A stretch of DNA of 64,000 nt from Phoronis australis (lineage: Eukaryota > Animalia > Phoronida), in NCBI GenBank assembly GCA_002633005.1, contig NMRA01000416.1, positions 10,541 to 74,540 on the forward strand, given 5' to 3'. The position numbers and the translations under genes were made by a program. Under the pieces are notes generated by a model that saw only the letters and a list, made by a program, of their open reading frames with translations, had not been told where the DNA came from and searched no databases. The stretch's first letter is position 1. Every line of letters starts with the position of its first letter. Below are positions 15,227 through 47,134 of this stretch, piece by piece.

Positions 15227-15386
15227 CATAGATTAATTCTTATTGACACAACCAAGCAAAAACGCTGTACCATGACAATTTCGGCTACTCACAGCAGCCA
15301 TCTTCGGAAGCATGGCTGCTGTGAGTAGCCAAAACTGTCATGGTACAGCGTTTTTGCTTGGTTGGGTCAATAAGAATTAATCTATG
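15227..15386. mobile_element. Near-perfect 160-bp palindromic MITE
   Basis: Arms of ~75 bp with few mismatches around a short loop; ATAGATTA...TAATCTAT ends like the neighbouring element. Confidence 0.85.
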
Positions 15387-16693: not shown

Positions 16694-19600
16694 CTGAGAG
16701 ATGAGATAATTTAACAGCAGGGGGTGCTGTCTACTGTCAAACTCTGGCATGAGAAACAATCTCTGGCTTAATGCACTGAGTAGGTATAACATAACGGTGC
16801 TTAGAACCTTCTGGAGTACAAAATTTTAACTTCAAAGCAATTGGTGATTCAAAAATTAAACATGATCAGTATTTGACAAGGAATTCAGAAATGGTATTGG
16901 TTTATGTTCAAACATTCTATAACTTAACTTTTATTTTTTAACAGCACAGCCCAGTCAGGCTAGATATGAGATTAAAGCAATTATCGAACAAAACAGAGCT
17001 GACCCTCCAACCATAATTGCCAGAATGAACCTAATTAGTCCTGTACGATATTGGCTACAGGGATCATCTTCCCAACTAGTTCATGTGCTATTCAAAAACA
17101 AGTTGTACTCAATGGGAGAATGCAGTAATGTGAGGGGTTTATCTCCTGATCCCCATTAACCTCCAAAGACAATAACAAAGAGCTCCCTGATTGTATTTGT
17201 TCAGTGATGAAAGAAATCCTTGGGGCTGGTTTCATTAAAAATTTCTTGTTTCTCTGTAAGTTCAAAGATACTCTTTCATTACATTCACCTATTTACAACA
17301 CCGGATAAGTTTCATCACTTGAAAGAAACCACAAAAATATAAAGATTTCCCAACTTTCAGCCTTGTTTGTGAATTCCCATATTTTACTATTAATTTGTTG
17401 AAAGCTTTGTTTAATGCGATGGCTGAAACTACCCAATGCGCAGCTGACCCCAGGCACTTTAACTGGCTACATGACGGCATCCTCCCATTCAGTGACTTTA
17501 CCAGATGTAGAGGGTTGTGAGTGTGTGATAACATCTAGCTCCTTTTTTAACTGCCAAGCACAGTGTTTTATCTGGTATGACAACAGGCAGGCCAATTATC
17601 TACCAGGCTTATTACAGACCACGTGTGAACACAGTCAAACCCAGAGCAAATTGGTACGTTCGGAAATGGAATAGATTGTCATAACTTTGGTTGTAATTGG
17701 GCGATTTTGTCGATTCAAAAATTAAACATGATCAGCATTTGATGAGGAATTCAGAAATGCTATTGGTTTATGTTCAAATATGTTGTAACTTAACTTATAT
17801 TTTTAACAGCATAGCTCAGTCAGGCTAGATAAGATCTTATTGCAGATTAGAGCAATTATCAAACAAAAGAGAGCTGGCCTTCCAACCACAAGTGCCAAAA
17901 TGAAGTTAATCAGTCGTGTAAGATATTGGCTACAGGGGTCATCTTCCCAACTTGTTGTTGGGCTATAGAATCGAACAAGCTGGGATCAACGTGAAAACGC
18001 TGTAATGATAAGTCTTAGGGATCAGCACTATGTTCCATAGACCCCAAAACACCACCTTATAATTGTGGCCAAAAATCTGTAAGGGAACAGAAACGGTGAA
18101 TTCCTACCTCATATAATTTATGAATTCAGTGCAGTAATTCAAAATTCTAACCTGACTGATGAATGACCACCACAGTTGCTAGTACAGGCTAGAAGTTCCC
18201 CACCATCCTGCTCTCAAAACACTCGCGTTTCACCAAACCTGATTTTGCAAGGTGTTGCCATATCATTACGGCGTTTTCCAGTCGCTACTAACTTTTTCGA
18301 TTCTATAGCCCAACAACAAGTTGGGAAGATCACCCCTGTAACCAATATCTTACATGAATGATTGAACTCCACTCTGGCATTCATGGCTGGAGGGCTGGCT
18401 CTCTTTTGTTCGATAATTGCTCTAATCTCCGATCAGATCGTATCAGCCTGACTCGGCTGTGCTGCTAAAAATGAAAGTTAAGTTATAACATATTTGAACG
18501 TAAACCAATAACATTTCTGAATTCCTTGTCAAATGCTGATCATGTTTAGTTTTTGAATCACCAAAACTGCCCAACTACAACAGAAGTTAAGACAACCTAT
18601 TCTGCCAGGTTTCAGTAACCCTTTGAAGCCTGGGAGATAATTGGCCAGCTTGTTGTCATATGGGACAAAAGACTGTGCTGGGAAGTTAACAAAGGAGCCA
18701 CATGTCATCCCACGTTCAGAACCCCTTACGTCTGGAAAAGTTGCTAAACGACAGAACGCCGTCATGCTTACCTTACTTGCAAGAGAATGGTCTACGGAAC
18801 ACTGAACATTACTTACAGCACCTGGCCACAGGTAATTTCACCTGCTAGTCGCAGGGATCAGTACTTACTACAGACAGACTGGTGCAGCTTCATCTCATTC
18901 AACTCGTACTCATGTTTTTGCACCTGTAGGGTCATGTAGTCTCTCAATGTCTGGTGGACAAGGTGGAATGAACCTTTAATGAAAATAAAAAGGTACACTT
19001 TCAGGTGGGACCGTGACGCCAAAGCAATTTGTACACCTAATGATGAAAATGGAGATAATTGTGAAAGGTCCCTTCCTGACCTTCACTTAAAGCCACATAC
19101 AGGACCATTATTGACCTCTGACCCTGTCTACAATAAGCTTGACATCTCAAACCTTAATAATTCACACAAGTTGGCTGTTGTGACAATATTTTATGTGTCT
19201 AGCAAAGTATCTTAACTTCAAATACGAAATATATACCATGTACGTAGTGAGAAAAAAGATTTAGCAGAACCACCTTCAGCTGCATGGTAAATTGTTTACT
19301 ACTTATCCAAGTTCAAAGGTTACAGAGCTGTCACACAAATTGAATTTCCCGCCAGGCATACAGCAGTTCCATATGCACCCATAGTCTTTTCATGCATTGA
19401 GCCATAACACTGAGTCAACAATGGAGGTGGACTGCATAGAAAGTTGCCAAGAAAAACAAAGACAAAACGTCCTGAGGGAGTTGCACATCTGCATGCATAC
19501 GACTGTTGAGAATGAATGCATCGAGTCCGAGTCGACATACGATGGTCTGTGAAGTGTGTTCTTGAACACAGCAAGTTGTGAAAAAAGATAAATCTTCACC

Positions 19601-22600
19601 AAATTCATTAATTTTATCAGTAATTTGACGTTCAGCTGTTTCGATCTAAAGCTCAAGGTGCATTTCAACTACTAACTCAATTTCTATTGTCTATTTCATA
19701 GTTGCTTGCTTGATTTCTCTCCTTGACACGTGGTGTGTATCACGGTGAACTGTTGACCTACTTACTGGTAACTCCATCAATGACCAAGTTTGACTCGAGG
19801 GACAAGAAACACGACTTAAAAATTAAAATGTTTTAGTGATAATTAAATTATTTACACACTGCAAATTCAGTTGATATTATGACAGAATGTTGAAATACTT
19901 AACATTAGGTAATGGCACGTATATGTTATATTGACCAATTTGTAATGTTTACACTTTTTTCAGGTTCGGTAAATCGACGACTTAATATGAGACTAGGAAC
20001 ACGAGTTCTTGAAAAGGGCTCAGTAAATTTCACTGAAACTTTACAGTTTTGATATTTATTTATCAATGTTAAAAAATGTTTTTTTTTAGGTTTTTCCTTT
20101 TAAATGCTTAGTTTTGGTGTATGCTATTTTTAGAACTTAAAGTATCTTAAGTTAATTTGGTATCAAAACAATTGAATTAAATGAGCAACCAAAAATTCCT
20201 ACCAGCATTTTTGAGGCAAATTGTGAAGTTCTCAGGGTTTCTTTAAAATTGACTACAGGGTTATTTTGCTATGAATGCGCCTTTCTTAAAAATGAAATTT
20301 GACTTAAAAAGGTGATTATGCAATAATAATAATGACACATACTACAATGGAGGTCATTTTATAAGGTTTAAGATAACCTTTAACTATGCAATCTAAAAAT
20401 TTAAAAAATATACAAAAGACTGCCGGATTACTTTTGACAGAATCTAGTTGCACATGCAGCACAGGCAGATTAATGTCCTTCTAATTTACTGAAACACTAT
20501 GTTCATAACTCTCATGAGAGTAGACGATGAAGTCATGTTTTTCATCAAAAATGCAGAAATATCCCAATCTTATGAACAAAAAAACAAATAACTGTCCTCT
20601 TGTAAGGCCAAAAAAGCAAAGCTGAATCTGGTGGCCGTTTTTTTTTGAAAAGTGAGTTGGTGATGCCGTATCTTTCGATTTCGTGACATTTTCGAAAAAG
20701 AAAATACTTCTGAGACAAGCAAAAATTACATTAGCGAATCGTGGTGTTTCAAACCTTGTGTACCCTTGCTTACTTACCTTTGTGCAATTTTTAAAAACTT
20801 GAAACCTTGGGTGATAATGATGCGAGTGAGTGATTCTTTTTTCCGTGTGAGACTGCAGGTCTCAAAATGAGTCAGGGTGAAGACTAGACCCAACTATGTT
20901 TTTGGCCTTACCTTTTAACTTCCTAACCAGTTGATTTATTGTTCAAACTATTAGCCCAGGTTATAACAATCTTAAGCCAGTCAATAATCTATCCTTAATC
21001 CCACATTCAGGTAATTAACAAATTGACAACTTCTCTTCAACTTGCTTTTAATCTGTCAGAAAAAAATATGCAAAAATTACTTCTATTTAACAAATAAATT
21101 GGGTATGCATACAAAAGTTTAGCTTTAATCGACAACTTCTCATCATCTCTGACATAATATCAGTTCCTTATGATATGTCAATTTCAACATTACAACTCTT
21201 TTAATTTGTAATTCCGTAAATATGGGAGGCAACATTGTTCCTTATTATTCAGTCCAGGCCAGTGACACCTGCTAATCCTCTGTGACAGCTCCATTTACAG
21301 TGTCACTATGAAAAAATACACAGATTTCTAATACAACCGTGAAAGTCTCACTGCATCCAGGGGTGTGCCTATAGGGACAAAAATTCAAAAAGACTAGAGA
21401 TAATCCTTAATCTCATGTTTATCAATCATGATTTGACCTGAATGTGTCAACAGGTTTCAATGAGCTTATGACANATGCATCCAGGGATGTGCCTATAAGG
21501 ACAAAAATTCAAAAGGACTGGAGATAATCCTTAATCTCATGTTTATCAATCATGATTTGACCTGAATGTGTCAACAGGTTTCAATGAGCTTATGACAACC
21601 AACATGTCACAACTGAAGGTTGGGTCTATATAAACTGAAGCTGCCAGCTTTGTCAAACCAATTGACCACTGACAGAGCAAGAGAGTAAATCATGAAGGTT
21701 TCCAACAAGAAACACTGCAGGCAGAACAGAAACATCAACAAGAGTTACGGTCGACTGAAAGCGCTCAACATACACTTGCGGGATGTTATGTTGCGATATC
21801 GTGATGCACACAAAGTGGGTAATGTGCTTCGCCAGGTGCAGTTGATTGCCCACGCCAGCCAGGTGAAAGAAGAGTGTGACCGCATGGCCACTGAAGTGAA
21901 TGAAGTTCAAGGTCACGGCATTTTGTGGGATGAGACATGATGGTAAAGAAACACACTGGTGTACCATCATGATTAAACAAACAGTCCTTTTAAGGACTAT
22001 CTACACCTTCCAAAGAGAACTGTTCACTAAATGATTTGGTTCCATGTGGCTAATATCATTTTTCACTTCATGTTCAAAATAGATATTCCTGCACTTTTTG
22101 CGCATTACTGCTACCTTTTCACATAGCTTTCTTAAGGTACTTTTAACACAGAGATGAACTACTCGACAACAATTTTGTTGTTTCAATGAGTCAGTTATAA
22201 TGTGTAGGGTGAAATGAAGATCTCAAGGTGCATTTTAAGTACCAACTTGATTTCTATTGTCTATTTCAGAGTTGGTTGCTTGATTTCTCTCTCTGGCACC
22301 TCGTTTGTATCAAAATGAACTGTTGACCTATTTACTATTGATTCCTCCTTTGACCAAGTTCGATTCGAGGACAAGAAAGCGACTTAATAATTAAAATGTT
22401 TTAGTGATAATTAAGTTAATTACACACTGCAAATTCAGTAGACATTACAATTAGTGAATGTTGAAATACCTAACAGGGCTATGGTATGTATAGGTTATAT
22501 CAACGAAAAACAAGTTTTCACCAAGTTGTAATGACTGCCGGTTTTTCTTGGCTTCCGCAAATTGACCTAATTTGAAACTACGAACACGAATTCTTGAAAA

Positions 22601-25600
22601 CAGCTAATCGAATTTCACTGAAACTTTCCAATTTTAATATTTAGTCATCAATATCAAAATAACAGGATTTTCCTTTTAAATGCCTAGTTTTGGTGAATGG
22701 TAAGATAGGCAAATACAAGTGCTATTTTTACAAAAATACCTTATGTTTAGCCAGTTAACTTGGCATTCAAAAATTGTCAATTAAGTTAAATGAGCAATCA
22801 AAAATTCCTAAAGGGTTATTAGGCAAATTGTGAAGGTTCCATTTAAAAAGAGTTTCTTTAAAATCGACCAAGGGGTTATTTTGCTATGAATGTACCTTTT
22901 ATAAAATCGAAATTTTGACTTAAAAAGGTGGTAATACAATGATAATAATGGCACATAGATATAAACATATTTTTATAATCTCTGATCCTAGTTGTTTCAG
23001 AAAATATATCAGAACTTTTACTAGTTCACATAACCGGCTTTTTTGATGAGTTAGAATGGAGGTCACTTTATAAGGTTTGAGATAACCTTAAGCTATGCAA
23101 TCTAAAAATTGAAAAAATATACAAAAGACTGCCTGTTAACTATTGACAGAATCTAGTTGCACATGCAGCAAAGGTAGATTAATGTCCTTCTAATTTACTG
23201 AACCCTACGGCCATAACTCTCATTAGAGTAGACGAATGAAGTCATGTTTGTCATCACAAATACAGAAATATCCCAATCTTACGAACTAAAAAACAAATCA
23301 CTGTCCTCTTGTCAGGCTAAAAAAGCAAAGCTGATTCTGGCCGCCGATTTATTGAAAAGTGAGTTAGTGATGCAGTATCTTTTGATTTCCTGACATTTTC
23401 AAAAAAGAACCTGCACCCAAGACGAGCAAAAATTAAGTTGGCGAATCGTGGCTTTTCAAACCTTGTGTACCCTTGCTTACTTACCTTTGTGCAACTTTTA
23501 AAAACCTTGAAAGCTTGGGTAAAACTGATGCGAGTGATTCTTTTTCAGTGGGAGACCACAGGTCTCAAAATGAGTCTGGGTACAGACTAGATCCAACTAT
23601 GTTTTTGGCCTTACCATTTAACTACCTAACCACTTGATTAATCCTTCAAACTATTAGCCCAGGTAATAACATTCTTAAGCCAGTAAATAATCTATTCTTA
23701 ATCCCACAATCGAGTACTTAATATATTGACAACTTCATTTCAACTTGCTTTTAATCTGTCAGAAAAAATTATGCAAAAATTACTTCGATTTAACACTTAA
23801 ATTGGGTATGCATACAAAACTTTAGCTTTAATCGACAACTTCTCATCATCTCTGACATAATGTCAGTTCCTTATGATATGTCAATTTCAACATTACAACT
23901 CTTTCAATTCATAATTCCGAAAACACGGAAGGCAACATTGTTCCTCATTATTCAGTCCAGGCCAGTGACACCTGCTAATCCTCTGTGACAGCTCCATTTA
24001 CAGTGTCACTATGAGAAAATACACAGATTTCTAATCCAACCGTGAAATTCTCACTGCATCCAGGGGTGTGCCTATAGGGACAAAAATTCAAAAGAACTGG
24101 AGATAATCCTTAATCTCATGTTTATCAATCATGATTTGACCTGAATGTGTCAACAGGTTTCAATGAGCTTATGACAACCAACATGTCACAACTGAAGGTT
24201 GGGTCTATATAAACTGAAGCTGCCGGCTTTGTCAAACCAATTGACCACTGACAGAGCAAGAGAGTAAATCATGAAGGTTTCCAACAAGAAACACTGCAGG
24301 CAGAACAGAAATATCAACAAGAGTTACGGTCGACTTAAAGCGCTCAACATACACTTGCGAGATGTCAGGGTGCGATATCGTGACGCACACAAAGTGGGTA
24401 ATGTGCTTCGCCAAGTGCAGCTGATTGCCCATGCCAGCAAGGTGGAACAAGAGCGTGACCGCATGGCCACTGAAGTGAATGAAGTTCAAGGTCATGGCAT
24501 ATCGTGGGATGAGACATGATGGTAAAGAAACACACTGGTGTACCACCGTGATTAAACAAACAGTCCTTTTAAGGACTACCTACACCTTCCAAAGAGAACT
24601 GTTCACTAAATGATTTGGTTTCATCTGGCAAATATCATTTTTTACTTCATGTTCAAAATAAATATTGCTGCAGTTTTTGCACATAACTGCTACCTTTTCA
24701 CATACCTTTCTTAAGCTACTTTTAACACAGAGATGAACTACTCGTCAGCAATTTTGTTTCTTCCATGATTCAGTTATTATGTATCGAGTGAAATGAAGAT
24801 CTCATGCTCAATGTGCATTTTAAGTACCAACTTGATTTCTTTTGTCTATTTCAGAGTTGATTGGTTGATTTCTCTCCCTGGCACCTCGTTTGTATCAAAA
24901 TGAAATGTTGACTGACTTACTACTTATTCCTCCTTTGACCAAGTTCGATTCGAGGACAAGAAAGGCACTTAAAAATTAAAATGTTTTAGTGATAATTAAG
25001 TTTATTACACACTGCAAATTCAGTAGACATTACAAGTGAAAGTTGAAATACCTAACAGGTTTATGGTATGTTTTCACCAAGCTGTAATGACTGCCGGTTT
25101 TTCTTGGCTTCCGCAAATTGACCTAATTTGAAACTACGAACACGAATTCTGAAAACAGCTAATCGAATTTCACTGAAACTTTCCAATTTTAATATTTATT
25201 CATCAGTATCAAAATAACAGGACTTTCCTTTTAAATGCCTAGTTTTGGTGAATGGTAGGATAGGCAAATACAAAGTGCTATTTTTACAAAAATACCTTAT
25301 ATTTAGGAAGTTAATTTGACATTCAAAAATTGTCAATTAAATTAAATGAGCAATCAAAAATTCCTAAAGGGTTATTAGGCAAATTGTGAAGGTTTCATTT
25401 GAAAAGAGTTTCTTTAAAATCAACCAAGGGGTTATTTTGCTATGAATGTACCTTTCTTTAAATCGAAATTTTGACTTAAAAAGGTGGAAATATAATGATA
25501 ATAATGGCACATAGATATAAACATATTTTTATAATCTCTGATCCTAGTTGTTTCAGAAAATATATCAGAACTTTTACTAGTTCACATAACCGGCTTTTTT

Positions 25601-28600
25601 GATGAGTTAGAATGGAGGTCACTTTATAAGGTTTAAGATAACCTTAAGCTATGCAATCTAAAAATTTAAAAAATATACAAAAGACTGCCTGTTAACTATT
25701 GACAGAATCTAGTTGCACATGCAGGAAAGGTAGATTAATGTCCTTCTAATTTACTGAACCCTACGGCCATAACTCTCATTAGAGTAGACGAATGAAGTCA
25801 TGTTTGTCATCACAAATACAGAAATATCCCAATCTGACGAACTAAAAAACAAATCACTGTCCTCTTGTAAGGCCAAAAAAGCAAAGCTGATTCTGGCCGC
25901 CAATGTTTTGAAAAGTGAGTTATTGATGCCGTATCTTTTGATTTCCTGACATTTTCAAAAAAGAAACTGCACCCGAGACGAGCAAAAACTAAGTTGGCGA
26001 ATCGTGGCATTTCAAACCTTGTGTACCCTTGCTTACTTACCTTTGTACAACTTTTAAAAACCTTGAAAGCTTGGGTGAAACTGATGCGAGTGATTCTTTT
26101 TTCAGTGTGAGACCACAGGTCTCAAAATGAGTCTGGCTCCAGACTAGACCCAACTATGTTTTTGGCATTACCATTTAACTACATAACCACTTGATTAATC
26201 CTTCAAAATATTAGCCCAGGTAATAACATTCTTAAGCCAGTAAATAATCTATCCTTAATCCCACAATCGAGTAATTAATAAATTGACAACTTCGCTTCAA
26301 CTTGCTTTTAATTTGTCAGAAAAATTATCCAAAAATTACTTCTATTTAACACATAAATTGGGACATGCATACAAAAGTTTAGCTTTAATCGACAACTTCT
26401 CATCATCTTTGACATAATGTTAGTTCCTTATATGTCAATTTCAACATTACAACTCTTTCAATTCATAATTCCGAAAACACGGAAGGCAACATTGTTCCTC
26501 ATTATTCAGTCCAGGCCAGTGACACCTGCTAATCCTCTGTGACAGCTCCATCTAGAGTGTCACTATGACAAAATACACAGATTTCTAATCCAACAGTGAA
26601 AGTCTTACTGCATCCAGGGGTGTGCCTATAGGGACAAAAATTCAAAAGGACTGGAGATAATCCTTAATCTCATGTTTATCAATCATGATTTGACCTGAAT
26701 GTGTCAACAGGTTTCAATGAGCTTAGGACAACCAACGTGTCACAACTGACTGTTGGGTCTATATAAAGTGAAGCCACCAGCGTTGTCAGACCAATTGAAC
26801 ACTGACAGCGCAAGAGAGTAAATCATGAAGGTTTCCAACAAGAAACACTGCAGGCAGAACAGAAACATCAACAAGAGTTACGGTCGACTGAAAGCGCTCA
26901 ACATACACTTGCGGGATGTTATGGTGCGATATCGTGACGCACACAAAGTGGGTAATGTGCTTCGCCAGGTGCAGTTGATTGCCCATGCCAGCCAGGTGAA
27001 AGAAGAGCGTGACCGCATGGCCACTGAAGTGAATGAAGTTCAAGGTCATGGCATATCGTGGGATGAGACATGATGGTAAAGAAACACACTGGTGTACCAC
27101 CGTGATTAAACAAACAGTCCTTTTAAGGACTACCTACACCTTCCAAAGAGAACTGTTCACTAAATGATTTGGTTCCATGTGGCAAATATCATTTTGTACT
27201 TCATGTTCAAAACAGATATTCCTGCACTTTTTGCGCATTACTGCTACCTTTTCACATAGCTTTCTTAAGGTACTTTTAACACAGAGATGAACTACTCGTC
27301 AGCAATAATATTTGTTGACTCAATGATTAAGCTATCATGTGTCGAGTGAAATGAAGACCCTTCTTCTAAAAATTACACAATGATCCAGACAAAATTTTTG
27401 TGTATAAATTAAAACATAAGTTTTGTTTGATTTCACACTCTGCTTAGAGAATCAAACATCCCATCAACGTATACTTTCGTTTTTTACAAATATTTCTGTT
27501 TTTATTTTGTCTGATACATTATTAGTTTTTCCTTTATTGTTTGCACTTGTGAGAACGAAATAAATTAAAAAAAACTATAAATTCTTGTATTTCCAACCTA
27601 CAGGTCAAAGGCAATAAAACTCTAGCTTTCCTCATGCAGTTGGTAGTAAATATACCACAAAATTAGAATGTAACACTATGGTTAAATGGACATTCTTGGC
27701 AAGAAAAGTACTTTGAAAGTAGCAGCAACACAAAATCGAACTCTCAATCTCCGCAGTAGCAACCAAATACTCAACAACTGAGCCACATCCCACACATTAA
27801 ATAGCAGAGTAGTTTAAATGCTTTTATAGTAAAGACACCACCCTTGATTTCAGCGAATGTCTACATCCAGCTTTTATGTTATTTTGTAACATGCATCAAT
27901 TCGGAATTGTCAAGGTATGAGGTGTAACCGATTCACAGATGCAACATATAAGTCAAACTAAAGGAGAATGCCACCCGATTTAGTCTTTTTTACCGTCTTA
28001 ATTGGTCTATATCCACATTGCCTCTTACGGTGGACCTCACCTTGCCAAGAGGTGTCACGTTAACCTGTAAGGAAGGTAAGAAATGACGCAGCGATGTCAG
28101 TGGTTCATCTGCAGACTGAATGCCGCCATATTGTGGTGCGTCGTTCCCGCTTGTCCGAAATATGAAGCTGCGTTGAAAGTGGGTATATCGTGTTTTCGGC
28201 TTCCTCGAGAGCCCGAAGTGGCTCTTGTTAGTGAAGAATGAAAAGTACACTGTTAATAGCAAGTATGAGGCCGTGAAACATCTCCGTGTCTGTGGCCGGC
28301 ATTTCGTCGACAGTGATTTCTCTGATGAATTCCGGCTAACCAAAGAACTATCCATACATTCCGTTGCCTGTGCATGTTCACGGTGCCTCTATAGTATTTC
28401 TTGATCAGTGTATTCAGGTTCGAACTTATAGCCTAACGATCCTACCCGTAAAGTCTTCGCCAGATGAGCTCTCGACTAAGTCGGGATTGGCGCCGGGTGA
28501 GTTGCCATGTAGACGTTTATTATTCTGCGTTCTGTTTCAAAATGAATTATTCTCACCCTAACCAATGCTTATATAAAACTGAAACAAAGTCTGTCTCACT

Positions 28601-31600
28601 AGATACAATTTGTGCCTGGATTCAGATGCAATAAAGGTAATTGACCAGGCATCGGGGCTGTGTGAGCGCATGCTAATTCAGTGTTTGCTGAAAGAAATCT
28701 GTTGTGAAACAATAACTCGATGTTATATGCTATGGTCACATGTTAGGGGAATCCTTATTTAGATAATTATAAAAATACATTATTCAAATCATTGTTACTG
28801 AACAACCTTTGCCTTGACAGGTCTGTGGAAGGGAACCTGACTTCGCGCCCCCCAACAAGTAAGACGATTTTTAGTTTCATGGCTAATTCCCCTAAATAAT
28901 TACATGCACATTTTTTTGGCTCACTATTATAGGGTTTTCGTGACTGGAGATCTATGTTCATGATATCCAGTCCCGAAGACAGCGACACCGGGCCTGATCA
29001 GGTTCCGAGCCACTGGACGGGAGTAACAAGTGTTTTGTGTTTAGAACTGAAAATATCGCAAGTCTAAAAGTACAACACACAGTTATGTTCCGCCGTCTGT
29101 ATTTCACAGAAGAATGATTCGAATTTATCACCAAACAGACCCTAACTCCCGCAATTCGACTATGGTAAATTGGTCTACTGAACTCTGTAGGCTACGGTAC
29201 GTTCAAATACCTATAAATTCCTAAAAGTGAATTAAAACAACACATTTGTTCAAGAACTCGATATATTTGTTAGGGGTTTACATCGAATTTTGATGATTTA
29301 TTGGACGTGTAAAAACGATGAATTGAAGCGATAAGTTGAGCATGCTGTGAACGACTGAACACACTGCGTTTGAACCGATTACGTCACTTGTTAATTTCAA
29401 CACCTCCGTCTGCCGTTAGGTGTCAGGTAAAACAACTGAACTTGCTGTTATCGAGTGGAACTACTCGATCTAAATTCATATAAAATAGGTTGTTTTTTGG
29501 GTGGCATTCTCCTTAAGTTTATAGTAATCGAACAAAATACTTGTTGCGTTTCCCCAATCACGAACGTTAATAACAGCATAATTGAAAGGAAATAACTATT
29601 ATGGGGAGAAAATTATAATTACAAAGTGACTTAGCCACGTTACTAGCTTTCCTGTCAATTCCCCTTCATTCTTGGTCATGAGGAAAAACTCTTCTGACGA
29701 TGAATTTGTCTTCTGCCCAGTGGTCACGACGGGGCATTCCGGGTCATCTTGTCTGAATACCTTTGGAGTGTACTTAAGATGAACAGATACCAAAAACACC
29801 TACCATAGGACACTGCTCCTTCTAGGTAGAGCTCCTTCAATATACAGTGTGCCGTCAGGTTCCATTTCAACATAAAGTCCTGGCCAATACGACTGAAGCA
29901 GAATGTTGACTTGGATGCTACCTTAGATTGTAAACAGACCATTTTAATTTTAAACTATGTTTTGCATTTCTTTGAAAGTAAATCTGTTCAAAAACAACAA
30001 CAACAAAAAATAATTCAAGAAGCACAGTTTGATTCTGGTATGTTTTTTTGAAAATCGATCTGTTGGTGAGGAATTTTTTTGCTTCACATTAATTTGGTAA
30101 AAAAATCCGAGACCAGCAAAATTGATGCATGACTTGTTTGGCAAATGAGCCATTTCAAATGTTGCTGCTGACATGCCTTTGTGATGTTTTTCAAAAAAGA
30201 AACTGGATACCGGATACCTTGGCTGAAATTGATGCTGGTGGATGTATATTTAATCGGTGAGTGCAGGTCTCAAAATGAGTTGGGGTACACACCAGAACCA
30301 CCTTTTCTTTGTTTTTGACTCTTCAACTTAAGTTTCAAACTAGTCTAACACGATAGCACACAATTTCTGTTACCAAAATGTACATCAAAACTGTAAGCGA
30401 CTCAAGAAAACGCTTCAGAGTTTATTGAATTTGGCTGACACTTAAATTGCATATTATGAATACATTGTATCCGTGACTTAAATGACTCATTTGGCAATTT
30501 AGGATCTGATGAGTATAGTGAAACCTCAAAGCACTTTGATTAAGGATCCATCATGACAACTAAAGAGCAAAGATGTCCTGTTTAACTGTAAATTTTAAGG
30601 CCCAATTTTCAAATCTTTAGTTATCAGGGCTTGGAATGACCAATGACAAAAAACGCGGAAACTTTTACGGCCCAAAACATGCGCACTACCCAGACTTGAA
30701 ATAGTCGATGTGAACCTTTCGCCGACAAACATCGCTAGAACTAAAAAAAAAAAAACGTTACCACCATCAGTAGCATGCGTCTGCGTCTTTTTATCTCGTC
30801 CATCCACTCCTCCACTCCCATTCCCACACATTTTTGGCTGCAGAGCCGTAGTATTTGTCACCACGGTTTACAGTCACACGAGATGCCATTGAAAATCCCA
30901 CCACACTATCCCAGATGCCCCGGCAATGTTGACAATTTACGTTCCTCCGAAACATAAAGAGCAACTTCCGCTTTTCGAGGTGAACGTCGTCGGCAACGCC
31001 GCGGTAGGAAAGGAATTTGCCACGGAAATTTTATATCAAATCCGATTTTTTTACGCGGAAATATAATAAAATGCGCTGACAGAACATTTGAAAAAAGCGG
31101 AAATCCGCGTTTCCGCGGAAAATTCCAAGCCCTGAGTTATTGTGATAATAAATCACGAACTGCTTCATTGTTTTTGGAATATTCACATTACCTTTTTGAC
31201 AAAGCGGTCTACTAGACTTCTGATCCAGACAAAGTACTTCTCCATTGTCACAAGCTGTTCCAGCATATTTCCAAACTCCTGAAGGTCTAATACAACAGCA
31301 AACAGTCTATAATTATTGCACGTATTCAACATCAACTAAACAAAAGAGGTGGAAGGGATATTAATTATGTTACCAATCAACTGACCCATCTTTGAGGAGT
31401 GAAGTGAAGTGCAACAAAGAATATTTTGAGGGCAGTCTAAGCTGCTTTATGGCGATTATTAAAAAGGAATAAAATATTTAATATTACCATTATGATGGGA
31501 CACATAATTTTTGCAATGACAAATTTCACGTCTCTTGATTTCTTTTAAGAGAAAAATCAAATTCTGATTAACCTAGGTTAACACTTCTAGTTTTCTATGA

Positions 31601-34600
31601 TAATCTACTAACTATATCCAGAGTAGAGTTTGTATGCAATCATTTCAAATTTGTTCCTTTTGTTTGATGTTTCAAATCAACCAGTGGAGGCTTACACTTC
31701 ACAATTCTCTTGGAGTCCCTTGTTGCCTGCACACCCATTGTCCAGGTGCACTGTGACACAACGGCATTGAAGTCCAGTTTCAGCCAATCAACTCTCATTA
31801 GTATCACACTGTCGTAACAGTGAAGTATCGTTCGACTGAAGGTGACCTCGTGGTTTAGTTCAGCCTTTTTTTGCAAGATTCCGCAAAAGGATTTTACAAC
31901 TGAAATATTGACACGAAGACAAGATAATGCACCATAAGGTGTACCAAAAGACTCATGAATTGCATCCATTCAAAGAAAATACACTACAGATCAAACGTAT
32001 CCACTACACAAAATTGACCCTGAATTCCCAGTCACAACGGTTGGACACCAGCCGAAGTCATTGACATAGCAGCCCAAGTCATTGACATAGCAGCCTTTCA
32101 TCCTGATTGTGAATAAAAGGGGATTTACCAGAAATTTAGTGAAGTGGAAACTATATTCTAGTTGATAATTGGTGTAATGACAGTTCATGGTCAATCATTT
32201 TTAGCTGTGAATGGTATCAACCGTCATGACAGACAAACAGCATTTTGTCCGATTGCTTTTCGTAATGTACTGTAACTCTCCAACATCTTCATTAAGTTCA
32301 AGGGCTTGAATTTCTGGAATGTGAAATAAATTGTAAACCAACATGACACATTTGCTAAGTATTGGAAAATTAAGCCCATGAATAACAAGAACAATGCAAA
32401 TAGTATGATTCTAGGGGAGTTTATTTCTAGTATAAAAATGGGCATTATATATGGCACAGAAAACAGAAACATTTTTAGAGCAACGCGGAGCGTTGAAATG
32501 CGCCCACAATTGCACCGCATACGGTATCCTTCTAGGGTTGTTTATTGGTACCATAAATTGGCCAGTAGAGGGCATACTTTGCAAAATGGAAAGGCATGGT
32601 CATAGTCTCCTCAATAGGCTAGGGGCAAAATGTGAGTTATCTTCATAATACAAGCACATCCTATACACCATTTGCTTAAAGCACCACAGAAACATAGAAT
32701 TAAAAACAAATTTACCAACATACGAGATTAGCACAGCATTAGAATGCCAGAAACAAATTTCTACTTAGAACTTTTCCTTCACAGTCACGAAGTAACACAA
32801 AGTATACACCTGAAGACCTATGAAAATACAGAGGTCAATGTAAAATACTAAAATTGCCACTAGAGGCAAATACTAAAATTGCCACAAGAGGCATACCGGT
32901 AGTCAGAATCATCCTAAAGTCGTCATCGTCCGTTGTCAACATCACATAAATACACTTGCTAAATTTAGTAAAGATCCTGCAAACGGTTTGGGAGATACAG
33001 CCATGGGCGCAAAAAAACAAAACTGCCACTAGGAGGCGCCACAGTAGTCCAAATCGTCTGAAAATCATTGTCAGCTGTCTTCCTTATAGTAAGCACATAC
33101 ACGCCAATTTTCACAATCATCCTTTGAGCGGTTTGGTTGATAGAGGGGTGGACGCAAAAATACAGACTCGAAAACAGTAAAAATGGCCACTAGGTGGCGC
33201 AAACTACGTCGAATCCATCTGAAAACAGTAGGATAGCGTCATCTCACTAATAGGTGCCTACATACCAAATTTCATGAAAATCCGTTCAGGACTTTTGAAG
33301 ATACAAAGGTAAGCGTAAAAAACTAAAATTGCCACTAGGGGGCACACCGGTAGTCGGATCCGACCAAAAGTCGTCATCTTCCGTTGTTAACATCATATAA
33401 ATATACTTACACAATTTTTAAAGATCCTGCGAACAGTTTAGGAGATACAGCCATAGGCGCAAAAAAACAAAACTGCCACTAGGAGGCGCCACAGTAGTCG
33501 AAATCGTCGGAAAATCATCGTCAACCGTCCTCTACATAGTAAGCATATACATGCCAATTTTCACAATCATCCTTTGAGCGGTTTGGTTGATAGAGGGGTG
33601 GACGCACAAAAACAGACTCGAAAACACTAAAAATGGCCACTAGGTGGCGCAAACTATGTCGAATCCATCTGAAAACGGGAGGATAGCGTCATCTCACTAA
33701 TAGGTGCCTACATACCAAATTTCATGAAAATCCAATAAGGACTTGTGAAGATACAAAGGTAAGCGTAAAAAAATTAAAATTGCCACTAGGGGGCACACCG
33801 GTAGTCGGATCCGTCCAAAAGTCGTCATCTTCCGTTGTTAACATCATATAAATATACTTACACAATTTCGTAAAGATCCTGCGAACGGTTTAGGAGATAC
33901 AGCCATAGGCGCAAAAAAAAAAAAACTGCCACTAGGAGGCGCCACAGTAGTCGAAATCGTCGGAAAATCATCGTCAACCGTCCTCTACATAGTAAGCACA
34001 TACATGCCAATTTTCACAATCATCCTTTGAGCGGTTTGGTTGATAGAGGGGTGGAAGCACAAAAACAGACTCGAAAACAGTAAAAATGGCCACTAGGTGG
34101 CGCAAACTATGTCGAATCCATCCGAAAACGGCAGGATAGCGTCATCTCACTACTAGGTGCCTACATACCAAATTTCATGAAAATCCGTTCAGGACTTTTG
34201 AAGATACAAAGGTAAGCGTAAAAAACTAAAATTGCCACTAGGGGGCACACCGGTAGTCGGATCCGTCCGAAAGTTCGCACATGCCGTCCCATTCATGAAT
34301 GGAACATATGTGCCAAATTTCATGAACGTATGTCGAAGGGTTTTGGAGATAGAGCAGCGGACGCCGGACGGACGGACGGACAGAGATGACGGCATAATGC
34401 GTCCACATATAAATATGTGGGCGCATAAAAATGAAATAGCCACTAGGGGGCACAGCACTCGTCGGATCCATCTGAATTTCATCGTCATTCATAGTCAACT
34501 TCATATAAATACACTTGGCTGCTAAATGTAATAAAGATCCTGCTGAAGGATTGGGAGAAACAGCCATGGCCGCAAAAAAATCAAAACTGCCACTAGGAGG

Positions 34601-37600
34601 CATCACAATAGTCGAAGTCATTGGAAAATCTTCAGCAGTCCTCTTCATAGTAGGAACATACATGCCAATTTTCACAATCATCCTTAGAGTGGTGTGGTTG
34701 GGCGGACACCAAAAAACAGACTCGAAAACAGTAAAATTGGCCACTATGTCGCGCAAAATACCTCGAATCCATCCGAAAACGTGAGATGCCTATCTGCCAA
34801 ACTTTATGAAAATCCGCTGAGGACCTTGTTTGAGGTAAACCTAAAAAACTAAAATTGCCACAAGGGGGCACACTGGTAGTCCGATCTGTTTGAAATATCG
34901 CTCATGCCATACCATCCAGGAAAGGAACACACTGTGCAAAATTTCATCACCGGTAGATTTTGGAGATATAGCGGACGTCAGAGAGACAGGCATGACGACA
35001 TGTGGGTGCATAAAAATGTGTAGGTATTCTAGAATTCTTAGGTCTCTTTACCCAAAGAGCTAGAAGCCTTTTTTGGTCATACCTTGCTGACTTATTCTGA
35101 GATTTAAAACGGTAGAAGTTAAATAGGTTTTGAAGTTATGATTTTTAATGAAACAGCCCTAATGTTTTTTGGCCTTACCTTTCATCTTCCCACAAGCCAG
35201 TAGGGGGTGTTGGCCGCCAATGGCTTCACATGTCCACTTCACCAAGTTTTTGCAGAACACTTGAATATCTTGCAGGAGTCTAAAATATTGATTCATTAAA
35301 ACATCAATGCTAAATGCGTTTGATACCACACCCTGAATACAAAGCATTTACATGCATGTGCACAGTGCAACAAACTCCCACCTGCCTTCTAGTTCATAGA
35401 CAGAAGAAAATAAGGATTTTGAAAATGGTGGAAAAGATTTTACTGGAAAAATGCCGCACAGTAACAGGCCCAACGAGAGGCACTTGACCCTGTAGCTGGG
35501 TTGAAGCTCCATGGCTGAAAAAAACGCCAGCAGCCGTAGATGGCCCAACAAAGTACCCGCCTCTTGGTTCTGCATTTACTTCCACAGAGGAAACATAATG
35601 TCCTACTGTCTATTGAACAGAATCTGTGTATTAGACACATAATAGACACACTTAGTTACACTGGGGAGTAACAGTAGACTATACTAACAATGACAACCTG
35701 TGGTGTGGTAGTTACCTATTGAGTAACTGTGTCTAAGTATCATTACTTCTTGTTTGGCCTAGCAAGATGGCCACTGTTTTTGCTTCCGAGGATGGTGTTT
35801 TAATAAATGAAGAAACACGTTCAGCCAATTTAAATCCATCATTGTTTTTATAAAATAATGTTGCAACTTGCTATCATGGAGATCTTTTGGAAATCTCATC
35901 AGAGATCTAGCAAGGAAATATGGATCTGTCAAAGTCATTTATCACTCAATGGAAGTGAATGAGCAACAAGATGCAAGCATTTTGTCAGGTAATTTAATTC
36001 ATTTTCTATTGTTCCTAAGATAATACACATTCACCTTGGGTACAGTAATTAATACAAAAAATGTCTTTACAGGATAACCAGGATCTAAATTACAAAAGGC
36101 AGCATCAAAAATGGTAGCTTTCCCCTTTACAACAAGTGGAAGTGACGGCGATGATGAAGGTGACAATACTCACAGCACAGGCAAAGTCTGTACAATACTT
36201 GGCACCAACACATTCTCCACGACGGAGTACAGCACAGAGTCACAGAGTGCGATCAGCTCGCAGGTGTACTTATGCTTCATACTACTGACGATGTGTGGGG
36301 GAACAGACTTCCAGAAGTTCAGTAACATGGAGTGTACCTGGACAAAGTAGAGTGCTGGGACTTACCAGTTATTGCAGGCACATGACAGTCATGCCCATAA
36401 CCATCATGAATATTTGCTTTTAAAAGTCACATTTTCCTTACTTTTGTCAATTACATTGAATGAGTATTTGACATTGCATGACACCTTATTATTATTTCAA
36501 ATAATAACCATACTGACAACTGATATGTTTGAAACAATACAAATGAAAATACTCATCAATGTTTTATCTTTCTACATGTAATTAAAAAAGTGACCACCAG
36601 AACAAGGATTGCAGTCCATCATCATTTCCAACAAGTTCACAAATCATAGAGCAAATTTTGCGAAATTGATTAATTGTGTTAGGTCAATTAAAATTGACCT
36701 AACTAATTAAAATTGACCTAACACAATCAACATGGAATTTATTCAATTAGCCATGTTACACAGCAAGATCCATCTCACTGTTTAATGATGTCCACTTTGC
36801 CTTATACTGACCTGCTTGAAGTCTGCCCTTACGAGACACTCAAGGAGTCTCTGACAAAATGACTTGTAGAGCTGCAGCACTACCGCCACCTGTGGAGATT
36901 ATGATATGAGCTATAGAGCACCTTAACTGAACTAAGGACAAAACACACAAAAATTCCAACCAAGGCAGGCGCCTGTATACGAATGTCATGGTCGTGTTCA
37001 ATAACTGTCTAGCAGCAAGAAAATCAAGCCAAAATCACATGGTCTCGTTTAAAATACATGATGAGATCTTGCTTTTCTAAAGCTGAGACACTAGCCTTAT
37101 TGAACTTGACCCACTAGGCCATACATGAAGCTAAGTTGAATGAGATCATGTGCAAAGAATTACAAGTGGCATAATATCCATGCCGTATGCCAAAAACAAA
37201 CAAAATTTTGACTTACGGTGCTTACAAAGAAAAGTTAGACTCAAATTATTCCTCAGTAAAATTCAGGGTGACTCCAGGACTGCAGGTCTGAAATTTTGTA
37301 AGGTGTTAGTTTGGTCTGATGAACTAACGATCAGTCAGTTCTTCTTGAGTCCAGTCATCACTTCTTCACAAAGTAGGTAATAAAACGAGACCAATTTTAC
37401 AACGGTATGACGTAAGTTTCTCTAATAAGTATACTATTAGATTAATGCAGCTTCAAACATTTTCGAAAGAATTGTTTCAACTCCAAACCCACGAGGTTAG
37501 ACACATGCTTATCGCTTTTCTAGCGATTGATTGAATCTACTTTGCAAAGCAGCTGCAGTACACTGTGAAAAAAGTACATGTGAAGTAAGAGATAAAATAC

Positions 37601-40600
37601 ATAATAATTGCTTATGATAGAAAATGCCAACACAAATTATGTAATTTGAAAGTGACTACTCTTTGTGACCTGATAACAAAATCAATTTCAATAAAAATGA
37701 AACAGGCTTTCATTCGACTGTACTTGTACACAAAGTCAGCATTACCACGTCAAGCATCTCAGCTGGACAGTGAACTCCTTGGACACTTGGGAAGCCAGGT
37801 ATAATGATACTTGTATGACCCAGGTGTATATCGCTACCCCCTACACCGTCAGCATCAACTTGGCTCTGAAATGATTGTGGACAAATACAACACGTAGAGT
37901 TCAGTCAAAATTAATGTACCTCATTCAGTTATATCGTGGATAGAAAAAAGAACAAAGTGGAGTGCTAAAATGCGCCCACGACTGCACTGCAAACAGTGTT
38001 GCTTCTAGGAGTGTTTATTTGTATCATAGAAAATTGGCCATTAGATAGCACAGAATACATTGAACCCATCCAAAAATGGTGCAATCGTGAGCATGAGATC
38101 GAAACAGTGAAACGTCAAATTATCGATTAAATTAATGAAATGGTGTGTTCGTAAACACAAGTCACAGAGGTAGTGCGCAGCAACTCAGACGTTATGCATT
38201 CATTCTCAATTGTCGTATCAACACACAACTCCCTTCATTTTCACCAGCATCTTTCTATCCTACGTACACCTTACTAACTCAATATTTCAGTGAATTGAGA
38301 GGACTGAGGGCACCTACGGAACTGCTCTATGCCTGGTGGAAGATTTGATTTGAGTGACAGCACTGTAACCTTTGACCTCGGATAAGTAATAAACAAATTT
38401 TCCCAGAGAATGAAGATAATTTATTAAACATAATGTGAAATGTTGTAAAGACGGCCCATTTTTGAGAATAAGGTTTGAGATATCGGTAACAAGAAAAGAA
38501 TCATCATGGCATTCCGTTATTTAATTCCTGGTATTTCAACTACGGTAAAACTTACTCACTAGTCACTGACGGCCATTTTTCAAATGCATCATGGGGCGGT
38601 TGTCTGCTCAGATACATCTGATGACATCATAGAAAATTTGTTTACTAAGTCTTGTAAATATTATAACAGAAAACAGTTCTTGTCACTGGAGAACACACAC
38701 CATAAATGGAAGCACAATTCCACTACAACTTTCATTGTGGGGCAAGTAAGACTAAACAAGCGCCATATTAATGTAAAAATTGAGTGAGTCCCCATGGAAT
38801 GCATCAAATGAACTCAAAGATTTTTAGCAAATCTTTTGTATACAATATTCTTGTGGCGTACACCGTATTATCACACTACAGTAAATCTCAACACCTAAAA
38901 CACCAGGCCTGTACTCCGGAGAAACAAAAAACCCCGAGAATACAAGATTATACAAGACTTCATGCCATATCCCCACGCATTGAAAGCAAAGCACAAGACC
39001 TGACTGTTTAGCTTTACTCTTGGAATTCTTAAATCTGCAAAGGAACTTAGCCGAGATTTCAATAATGATACCAGATCTTTACCAGCCGACAACAGTCCCA
39101 GAATGCATTTGAAAAACAACTGGTAGCAGCATTGTAGATAAAATCCCCCAAATCCACTGTGATCGCACAACATTACAACAGACTGCAACAACAATACCGC
39201 CACGAGTCAGGATAGTGTTGAACAATGCTAACATAATATACATGTATAACAAAATCTTGAAAGTAACAAAATGAATTAAACAAAAACAGAACACCAATGA
39301 AAACTCAAAATCGTAAGCCAGAGAATTTTAAGAAACTTAATTAACGGTAGATTTTTTCAATGAATGTATTACCATAGTAAAGTTTACATCCAACTTACAA
39401 CAGTGCGACTATGGGAAGCTACCGTGGCAAGGGTATTCAAACTAAAGATACAACATCAAAAGATGACCTGAGGTTCATAGATTCAGACAAGAAGATGCAC
39501 TGTGAGTGTTAAAACGAAGAGCCGAGTCACAATATAGTCAATGGTATACACAGAAAACATCAGCATTTAACACACTTTTATCTTACTGACAGTATGGACT
39601 TTGTCATGCAGTTCAAACATGACATTCCTGTATTTGAATGTCTTGGCCCTCCAGCAAAAACACCGTCTCTTGCACGCTTATTGGCTGCTCAGGTCGTTAT
39701 CAAAATTGTTTGGAGCACTAACTAAAAGAACTAAAAACAGTACAAACGTGGACTTCCGAACGCTTTCCAAACTGTTGAGGTTTGAAATGTGTTAGCATTA
39801 TTTGTTAAAGTCAATTCACGCAACAAGCATTCATATATTTGTGACCTTTCTAAGTGTAAAGGAAAAGAACATTGTTAAAAAATGATGCGGGTGGGTGTTT
39901 GTTTCGTAAAACAACGATGTGCAGGTTTCCAAATAAGCTGGCTGCACACTATTTTCTTTGGCCTTACCCGACTAAACTTTCCTCTATTCCTGCCATGCGG
40001 CAGGTAGAACCTAAATCGTACCTGTTCACCCTCTGAGTCAGACTGAGAATATCACTGTACGGTGACTGGTCCTTCACCTTGATCCCATAGTAGTGATACC
40101 TGACCGGTATAAACCAGAATTAAAACAGTATGCAGCTGGCACCTTGTTCTATGCTACTTCAGAAATGTACGCAACGTGTTACACTCAAAGTGACAAAGAC
40201 ATTCCCTAATCTGTCAGATTATTACAGTAAGCAGAGTGTCTTGAGGAAACCACATTCGTCAAAAGGTCAGTTGCATTCATGAGAAAAAAAAACATTGTTA
40301 CGGAAAATATTTTCATGTTCCATCAAAAGGAGAAACTGGTTAATCTGGATCAGTCATGGTTTTGACAAAGAAGCACACATGTGACAGGCAAAATTTTGAA
40401 AACAAGAAGAAATATTCCAGCAAAACTCTATACTCACTTGGAGTTTCCGCGGTTACCGAGTCTCCTGGTTTTTATTCTTGGAAAGACCATGCGGATCATT
40501 TTGCCAAATCCCGCCGGGTTGGCTGGTTCAAAGTTATAGCGAACACAAAAGTCCAGATAGTGGCTGTATACCACACTCCTAGGTAAGCTGATACCATCAT

Positions 40601-42963: not shown

Positions 42964-44296
42964 GGCTACCTAAGAAAAAAAAAGCCAATGCTGTACATCT
43001 ACAATTAAGCAATAGTTCCTTACAATTAGGGTCCCAGATTTTAAATTGGGACCAGTTTGGTGCCTGATATTTAGTAGAGAAAACCAGTTCTCAAAATACG
43101 GGATCTACAAGTGGCAGCTGACGAGGTTACGTATTTTCTTCCTAAATGTATTCAAACATGGTGTTGGCATTTTACATCTACATAGACAGAACATCAGAGC
43201 AGTCATTAACTTAATTCTTATTTTCACTTTTCTTTTCCTCTTGTCTGTAGCAATCTTTGTGATACATAATGTTACTTTTTATAATACTGCCATTCTCATT
43301 ACTGGGTTTTTGCTTCTTTTAACTTTTTGTTATTTAAATAGTGCTGTTGTTTTACATTACTTGTTATTTGTTATTCTGAAATTGTACTGTCAGAGTCATC
43401 CAACTGGTCACGCGTTCTACTCTGAGTCTCATGCTTCTTATGGCAAACACAAATGACGTCAACTGAAATACCGGTACTTTGTCCACGGTCATAGTACGCC
43501 CTGAAAAAGTTAATAGTGACCACAAAAGCAGACTTGGAATTCTTCGCAAAAGTCCTCTAATTCCCAAAGACATATATCGAGGAATGAATAGAACCAAAAA
43601 TGGTTGCTGAAGAAAGCATTTTTTATGTGACAATTTTAAGTGTAAAATGTATTTTAACGAGGTGAAAGCCTCACATTCAGTATTGGCATTATCCTGTAAG
43701 TTAATTAGCTCTTAATATACATGGAGATTTACAAACGCTGGTCAGAGTTAACAATATCACGTGGATTCTTTTAATATACAACTAAGCTATATTGAAACAA
43801 GTAAACAACACACAGTGACTTAACCCTAACTGGTACGAAAAAAGAAGCAAGTAGACATGAGTATTAAAATAAAGTAATGAAAACAGGTATTTAAAACCAA
43901 CATTCCTTTGGGAAGTGGCCCTTTGTCAATATCAACGCAAATTTACTTATTCGTCTTTTTGTATTATTTAATGATGAACCAAGTTAAAACTGCTCTCCAC
44001 ATTGCAGACATTAACTCTTTGTAAATGCCAGAGAAAAACAATTTGGGTGTAATAACAATCACCATTGTTAAGAATGTAGTGCTAGCTATTACCTTCCACT
44101 TCATTAGCTCAGATCTACATCAATACAAAGGGCTTGCTGATCAGTATCATAAAAGTTGTCTGGGGCTTAGGGAATCAGAGCGGTGACCAGTGTAAGCGAG
44201 AAATTCTCCACATGTAAAAAGTGGTAAGATAAAACCTGACACAAAATTAGTGTCATTAAAAACTACAGTCTTCCTTCAGTAAATTTAACTATTTAA

Positions 44297-46005: not shown

Positions 46006-47134
46006 TTAAGGGTGTTGAAAAAATGGCGTTCTACCGTTACTCGGCTGCTAAAGTTGTAGAGTGATCTTCTACGTGGGCTTAATGCCATCAACGCGTCACC
46101 AATTGCAGTTTCTATTTTTGCAACGATTATTCAATCGACTGTTGTTCTTTCACGAGGTTGTGTACACGTCACAACAAATTACCGGAACTGGTTTCACTTC
46201 ATTATAAGATTTTAGAATTTTGATACCGAAAAACCAAATTACAGAACAAATTTTGCTGCTGCGAAAATGTCGCAATAATTTAGGAATGGCACGTGCGTGT
46301 GACATGAGAGCGCTGTTTTCAAAACAACAACATACTTTCATTGTTACAAAAGGTTGAGAATGACGCAAGAAAATGACGTTTGTTACATTGTTTTTCACTT
46401 AAAGTTGACTTAAACGGTTACGCCGGGCAAGGTCGGTTACCGGATACCCAGACTTTACATGCACCCGTCCGGTCGTTGGTTCTACATGTTGATACAGGTT
46501 TCACGGTGAGTTGACGAGCAGAACTACCCTGGCTGTCTGCAATTTCGGGGTCTATGGAAGAAAAACACGCAGTGGTACCTAGCTGTATTTTGTCTATTTT
46601 GACGATGAATCTTCATAGGCTGGCTCAACTGGCATTCAAAGTTCGCTCCCTGTCTTGTTCAATTCTTGTTACATAATTAAGATTTGTTTTTACAAAGCTC
46701 AACAAGCAAACAAAGCGAAAACTCCTGTGCATAAAAACTAAGCCCGTATTGAAGCGGAATTGAAAAATACCTCACCAGTCAAGGAAAATTCCTAAGAAAA
46801 TATTTGAGATGTCTGACCATTTTGGAACACATGCGTTTGTTTACGTGAACTGCAAGCGGCATCTGTTGGACGATTACGCGCCAAACATTTGTTACAATTT
46901 TTTGCTTTTGCAATGCTGCCGTTAGCTCCGTCTTTTAGGATCCTGGGTGAAAAGTATTCAAGAGTTTTGATCTGTTCCTAAGTAGGTGACTTTTCACTTT
47001 TAATCCAATTCGACGAACAATACCAATAATGTATTAGAGATTAGTTGTCTCCCCCAGTCCACGTGATGCGAAAGTTCATTCAAGGAGCAGAACAGTGTTC
47101 GTCTGTCAAGAAATGTGACTGTGAGCCTTTAAAA

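Follow-up and report, generated by a model that had tools for sequence, protein, structure and literature searches.

Genes nested antisense in the introns of other genes, and tandem arrays whose copies evolve in concert, are familiar features of genomes. Separately, the early embryos of fly, zebrafish and mouse transcribe short, intron-poor and evolutionarily young zygotic genes (PMC4654234). In the available text of PMC11467316, mammalian genes of zygotic genome activation are driven by K50 paired-like (PRD-like) factors through TAATCC, and the available portions of PMC5322547 and PMC12550047 describe an early TALE/PRD programme in spiralians. Here we describe a locus of the phoronid Phoronis australis that resembles each of these systems in part. 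Within a window of 64,000 nucleotides of contig NMRA01000416.1, three tandem copies of an 82-codon open reading frame (ORF) lie antisense within an RFX intron. Substitutions among the copies support protein-coding constraint, and we regard the array as very probably a working protein-coding gene. Whether it is a gene of the early embryo is, in our judgement, evenly balanced.

An array of 82-codon ORFs under coding constraint

Region 19652–27357 consists of three units arranged head to tail, 2570, 2585 and 2551 bp long. Each carries one plus-strand ORF of 82 codons, preceded by TATATAAA at −65 and an A at −3 and followed by an ATTAAA that starts 32 nt past the stop codon. A first-pass annotation of the sequence had described tandem units of ~2.57 kb with one such ORF and this same set of signals, and every element recurs in all three copies:

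19652–22221: tandem unit 1, with the most diverged spacer, an N at 21474 and a 123–124 bp duplication
22222–24806: tandem unit 2
24807–27357: tandem unit 3
21692–21940, plus strand: 82-aa ORF, copy 1 (P0001)
24271–24519, plus strand: 82-aa ORF, copy 2 (P0002)
26825–27073, plus strand: 82-aa ORF, copy 3 (P0003)
21627–21634, plus strand: TATATAAA of copy 1, at −65
24206–24213, plus strand: TATATAAA of copy 2, at −65
26760–26767, plus strand: TATATAAA of copy 3, at −65
21972–21977, plus strand: ATTAAA of copy 1, likely polyadenylation signal
24551–24556, plus strand: ATTAAA of copy 2, likely polyadenylation signal
27105–27110, plus strand: ATTAAA of copy 3, likely polyadenylation signal

No ATG intervenes between TATATAAA and the start codon in any copy. 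Across the window, a TATA-like word followed by an ATG-initiated ORF of at least 60 codons occurs at six places, and only the three array copies have A at −3. A tblastn search of the 64 kb found no fourth ORF copy. From these signals we predict a transcript of ~340 nt that would start ~32 nt upstream of the ATG.

The differences among the copies carry a coding signature. The ORFs vary at 17 sites, falling at codon positions 1, 2 and 3 in the ratio 6/2/9, and 10 of the 17 are synonymous. The mutation spectrum of the flanks predicts a neutral synonymous share of 25.8% (P = 0.004), and a null model restricted to transitions predicts 32% (P = 0.021). Copies 1 and 2 differ by 10 synonymous and 7 non-synonymous changes (dN/dS 0.16; Fisher p = 0.0004), exactly as had been counted by hand; the figures are 4 and 3 for copies 1 and 3 (dN/dS 0.19) and 6 and 4 for copies 2 and 3 (dN/dS 0.17), with all three pairs drawing on the same 17 sites, so that the pairwise values are not independent. 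The ORF frame is the strongest of the six, since only 1–5 of the 17 sites are synonymous in the other five. Base composition is also distinct: GC content is 48–49% in the ORF and 55–60% at its third positions (GC3), and 34% in the remaining unit. The alignments of the units contain 23, 26 and 10 indel events, none inside the ORF, which bears out an earlier reading that indels are confined to the flanks; about 1–2 would be expected in 249 bp at unit rates, so their absence is weak evidence alone.

The RFX strand also offers a stop-free frame of 115 codons opposite each ORF (21653–22000, 24232–24579 and 26786–27133), with antisense ORFs of 105, 87 and 87 aa that are open in all copies. We rejected these as genes: 5 of 17 sites are synonymous in that frame, the one product scanned has no Pfam match, and no reads cover them. 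The low synonymous share marks the frame as a shadow of the plus-strand ORF.

A homeodomain-type motif cluster upstream of each ORF

A dense motif cluster, new in this analysis and absent from the first-pass annotation, precedes each ORF:

20985–21632: upstream TAATC(C/T) and TGACA cluster of copy 1, including the duplicated 124 bp
23621–24211: upstream cluster of copy 2, likely enhancer/promoter, with 5 TAATCC, 10 TAATC and 11 TGACA
26175–26765: upstream cluster of copy 3, likely enhancer/promoter, with 5 TAATCC, 9 TAATC and 10 TGACA

Among 2592 words scored in the 590 bp from −650 to −60, TAATCC, TAATC and TGACA are the most enriched (copies 2 and 3). The rest of the window predicts 0.12 TAATCC and 2.1 TGACA, where we observe 5 and 10–11. 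Dinucleotide shuffles of the copy 3 region average 0.36 TAATCC and 2.12 TGACA, and none of 5000 reached the observed counts (5 and 10). Judged family-wise, across every word of equal length, shuffles were as extreme in 5 of 500 cases for TAATCC and 7 of 500 for TGACA, or ~1%. None of 550 windows outside the array reached the copy 3 count of either word.

TAATCC and TGACA match motifs of homeodomain proteins, those of the K50 paired type and the TALE class respectively. The accessible parts of the literature give TAATCC as the K50 (Otx/Crx-type) motif (PMC6779754) and TGACAG as the Meis motif (PMC9081933); for the spiralian-specific TALE and PRD proteins, no binding preference appears in the portions of PMC5322547 and PMC12550047 available to us.

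The product is a likely lineage-restricted orphan

The predicted protein is small (9.6 kDa), basic (pI 9.8–10.3) and free of proline, with a net charge of +10 to +11 over residues 1–45 and −3 to −4 over residues 46–82. It has no signal peptide or hydrophobic segment (highest 19-residue hydropathy 0.13), and we rejected a secreted peptide or toxin on that ground. AlphaFold2 models a single helix over residues 4–73 (pLDDT 87, pTM 0.45), with a similar result from the three-copy alignment (pTM 0.44–0.45). Heptad a/d positions are hydrophobic at 7 of 8 places in residues 15–39 and 6 of 8 in residues 48–72, versus 26% at other positions; the heptad register shifts near residues 41–44. Such a pattern would be compatible with a coiled coil or a helical hairpin. 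Charge, model and Pfam together agree with the annotated profile of a basic N-terminus, helical core and acidic tail, lacking a signal peptide or a nameable domain.

Searches returned no relative. Pfam gave only sub-threshold FliS_cochap and SPT16; a word-indexed search with copy 3 gave no candidate among proteins of near length, and the three-copy alignment confirmed 0 of 33 candidates among longer proteins at E up to 1. A full phmmer search of 1.84 billion representatives (E up to 0.001) found no true relative; its single match, a 1769-aa repetitive wasp protein, is an artefact whose score sums nine repeats. The best Atlas score, 0.83, lies within the range of shuffled sequences. PHROGs gave no match for the ORF protein and Foldseek none in its viral and PDB sets; among PDB sequences the sole match was RicA (E 0.44), with nothing for residues 5–60. 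Pattern matches in viral and metagenome contigs were confirmed in 0 of 12 and 0 of 151 cases, and Rfam has nothing in 18500–30200. The literature, consulted by title and opening of the abstract and consisting mostly of open-access papers, holds nothing on the gene or family, and supplementary stage-marker tables could hold relatives. The annotation had also pointed to a loose likeness to small uncharacterised mollusc proteins, which stays tentative: no such protein surfaced among the 1.84 billion representatives or in Atlas, at thresholds that can miss distant kin of an 82-aa helix. Combining these results, we consider the protein likely to be a lineage-restricted orphan.

Structural comparison with VIA-align placed 690 chains at Z of at least 5 and none at Z of at least 8, all generic coils at 1–15% identity. 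Among them, the Sir4 C-terminal coil, SYCP1, lamin and ROCK share one long helix with the ORF protein (Z 6.5–6.9). Their shape is common, and at such identity it assigns the ORF protein to no family.

Could the product instead be a microprotein of degenerate bHLH or bZIP type, which would bind transcription factors as a dominant-negative partner in the manner of Id and emc? The order of its parts, a basic stretch followed by an amphipathic hydrophobic heptad, is that of bHLH (Id/HES) and bZIP proteins, and residues 10–25 loosely resemble helix 1 of a bHLH domain, with no HLH profile match. But neither Pfam (E up to 1) nor PDB sequences (E up to 10) yielded an HLH or bZIP match; the break that should follow bHLH helix 1 is missing from a protein that has no proline and is predicted to form one continuous helix; and the N-x7-R spacing that marks bZIP proteins is absent. 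We therefore hold this relationship to be very improbable.

The array lies antisense within a transcribed RFX gene

The minus-strand host gene spans at least 18.9–42 kb of the window (listed as 16374–42007) and encodes an RFX DNA-binding domain in exon 40437–40622 (Pfam PF02257, E 1e-22). Three of its features frame the array:

29804–29921, minus strand: RFX exon upstream of the host intron, BCD_RFX PF25340 positions 205–247 of 270
18974–29803, minus strand: host intron, 10.8 kb, GT–AG, phase 1, from splice ends and phase
18869–18973, minus strand: RFX exon downstream of the host intron, from read coverage and splice ends

The BCD_RFX match on the upstream exon (E 2e-4) is below the curated cut-off. 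The closest relative found, the one match among three candidates, is an RFX4-like protein of Lineus longissimus, which is 69% identical over the DNA-binding exon and can be aligned to some nine exons in the window, at 20–58% identity in the others. By sequence, the host is thus classed as a divergent RFX paralogue. The model of the Lineus longissimus relative ends at the level of exon 31189–31286 and may be a truncated gene model.

We examined transcription in three raw-read RNA runs (18–19% of each read) and one contig run, all of unknown tissue, at likeness thresholds (80 and 88%) loose enough to capture every ORF copy. Spliced joints in the raw reads connect 29918 to 31189 (35, 9 and 3 reads) and 31286 to 31696 (17, 13 and 2 reads), and run X3 has far fewer of these joints than X1. 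The first mate is on the plus strand in all spliced reads, so the libraries are stranded. RFX exon bin depth in the three raw runs was 15.3, 14.2 and 1.6. Exon 18869–18973 is covered on the RFX strand, with depth dropping to 0 in the next bin.

Both exons that border the array carry AG/GT ends, and their phase-1 junction encodes SYG–SFHL. With canonical ends, a shared phase and transcription of both exons, the annotation's placement of the array in an RFX intron that splits this motif holds. Splice ends, phase and flanking coverage together place the array wholly within an intron of a transcribed opposite-strand host.

Relationships among the copies

Units 2 and 3 are 91–100% alike, and the spacer of unit 1 differs from both by up to 28%, with many indels. 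Spacers differ by 10–25% over the set, and every copy retains an intact ORF, TATA box and ATTAAA signal. The two unit junctions are free of Ns and unlike each other and both array edges, and the edges show neither terminal inverted repeats nor a target-site duplication. Given such edges and junctions, tandem duplication by unequal exchange would be the simplest account of the array. The distal spacer is dispersed-repeat debris: it draws dispersed-repeat reads at 80% likeness, and the ORF and the proximal ~0.7 kb upstream draw none.

The copies are mosaics of each other. The odd one out is copy 3 in the promoter, copy 2 in the 5' part of the ORF and copy 1 in its 3' part. Over 34 sites these labels form 10 runs, a clustering equalled in 0 of 100,000 permutations. 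The mosaic pattern is compatible with gene conversion, and also with mis-phasing of short reads.

One position within unit 1 bears on how the assembly was built:

21352–21597: direct duplication of 123–124 bp, with 5 mismatches, flanking a single N at 21474

This is probably an assembly join, left by a contig overlap that was not merged, so unit 1 may be composite. A second single N, at 58470, adjoins a direct duplication of ~650 bp (57818–58770) and is probably of the same kind; the window's other three Ns have no such duplication. These joins raise the prospect that the gene is real and the three-copy array partly an assembly product, made of alleles or mis-phased copies, with a true number of two, or of more than three. 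The N between near-identical stretches at 21474, its counterpart at 58470 and the closeness of units 2 and 3 would suit this account, and the 10-run clustering is also expected from mis-phasing. However, the two N-free junctions match neither one another nor either edge, and the spacer of unit 1 is too diverged for alleles. We consider an assembly origin unlikely. The substitutions are real variation with or without a join, so the synonymous bias stands. As for the dosage amplification that had been proposed, the three copies are present in the assembly, but a role in dosage is inference only, and unit 1 carries the probable join.

A proposed setting for the gene

The motif cluster and the absence of the ORF from the tested runs together point most to a short burst of expression in the early embryo. 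Otx/Gsc/Pitx-like and TALE factors would switch the array on between cleavage and gastrula, and the promoter of each unit would produce the ~340-nt transcript from ~32 nt upstream of the ATG. The protein would pair its heptad face (residues 15–39 and 48–72) with itself or with a partner coiled coil, and its basic N-terminal half would favour a site in the nucleus or near nucleic acid. Unequal crossing-over would have supplied the tandem copies, raising output within a short time window, and gene conversion would keep promoter and ORF alike among them. Because each unit has its own promoter, the position in an intron would be incidental. Taken whole, this mechanism, a lineage-restricted coiled-coil microprotein gene fired in an early burst by K50 paired-type and TALE factors, is a tentative proposal that we place slightly short of an even chance.

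Several observations weigh against it. ORF depth is 0 over 21655–21884 and 26679–26945 in all four RNA runs; absent reads fit stage restriction and equally a silent gene. The motif cluster counts as one observation, as the copies are not independent, and some of its sites stem from short internal repeats. Its motifs are not clearly better conserved than their surroundings (8 of 118 columns variable, versus 58 of 543 elsewhere), and photoreceptor and anterior neural genes are likewise under the control of K50 and TALE sites. The selection test comprises 17 sites at one locus, and no relative was found against which to test conservation. Finally, the pTM is just 0.44–0.45, and a single long helix is the default for shallow alignments. 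The annotation had called the gene functional and under purifying selection: the coding constraint (10 of 17 sites synonymous) sustains the second part, but with no transcript seen in the runs the first part does not follow.

The motifs also fit the main alternative, the same small gene working later in an organ or scarce cell type, such as photoreceptors, anterior neural tissue, the ciliary band or the gonad. The RFX family governs ciliated cells, and the tissues of the RNA runs are unknown. In the accessible text of PMC6779754, TAATCC clusters are a Crx/Otx photoreceptor signature, and in that of PMC9081933, Meis acts in anterior neural tissue. On the other side, a short, intronless, TATA-driven, orphan and tandem build suits early zygotic genes rather than a later cell type, and three deep runs that express RFX contain essentially no ORF reads, about one plus-strand read near the ORF 3' end. 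We rate a later role as rather unlikely.

The missing reads could equally belong to an array that was recently silenced and is decaying, its synonymous bias a remnant of past constraint on the gene or on imported cargo. No expression in any of four runs, spacers made of dispersed-repeat debris and two radical changes of copy 1 relative to the other copies, R62C and S78L, would agree with decay. Yet no copy has a broken ORF, TATA box or ATTAAA signal despite spacer divergence of 10–25%. As to a cargo origin, the array edges lack terminal inverted repeats and a target-site duplication, the ORF region is not a transcribed dispersed repeat, and the searches gave no viral or phage match. Decay is in our view improbable.

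If expressed as we predict, the array would encode an unannotated orphan microprotein, and its motif-dense promoter would indicate homeodomain drivers of early spiralian-type transcription. The locus also shows how such genes are missed: they fall below 100 codons, lie antisense in an intron and are absent from the RNA runs used. A more speculative extension, which we think unlikely to be right, is that the protein is the first member of an unrecognised lophotrochozoan family of genome-activation microproteins, under TATA and K50-paired/TALE control and multiplied in tandem to raise the dose, with coiled-coil products that titrate a partner during spiral cleavage. Were that so, the promoter would serve as a reporter for the factors, still to be identified, that activate the zygotic genome in spiralians.

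Neighbouring repeats

The window contains further repeats. DNA transposon copies at 27961–29515 and 44294–46006 are 77–83% alike, with short terminal inverted repeats and TTAA-like flanks, and carry remnants of a THAP domain (Pfam E 1e-9 at 44421–44795; E 0.0013, below cut-off, at 28177–28401); we presume them to be Kolobok-like. The copy at 27961–29515 sits in the host intron alongside the array and attracts many reads that come from its relatives elsewhere. Other RFX introns hold an array at 32850–34930, with ~450-bp units of ~145-bp sub-repeats that resemble a dispersed-repeat or satellite family, and a degenerate 31-bp minisatellite at 41329–41854. A near-perfect hairpin at 15227–15386 (75-nt arms, 96%, 10-nt loop) and nested inverted repeats of 65–158 nt at 16841–18766 are likely MITE-type elements.

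Comparison with known systems

The arrangement of the locus, nested, tandem and concerted, is ordinary; its product is undescribed within the searches made. Like known nested and concertedly evolving arrays, it has its own promoter in the intron of an opposite-strand host, conversion-like mosaic tracts and spacers that diverge faster, and it differs from them in its product and in nothing mechanistic.

The early zygotic genes of fly, zebrafish and mouse (PMC4654234) offer a second parallel. The ORFs are short, intronless and young, as genes of the early zygotic burst are, and they share with them a single exon, a TATA box, a predicted transcript of ~340 nt, no detectable homologue and no reads in the tested runs. 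The array has no sequence relation to any such gene, and its embryonic expression is a prediction. The third parallel lies in regulation. The upstream cluster of TAATCC and TGACA recalls both the TAATCC-driven genome-activation genes of mammals (PMC11467316) and the early TALE/PRD programme of spiralians (PMC5322547, PMC12550047), as far as the available text of those papers describes them; unlike the homeobox genes at the centre of these programmes, the array would be a candidate target.

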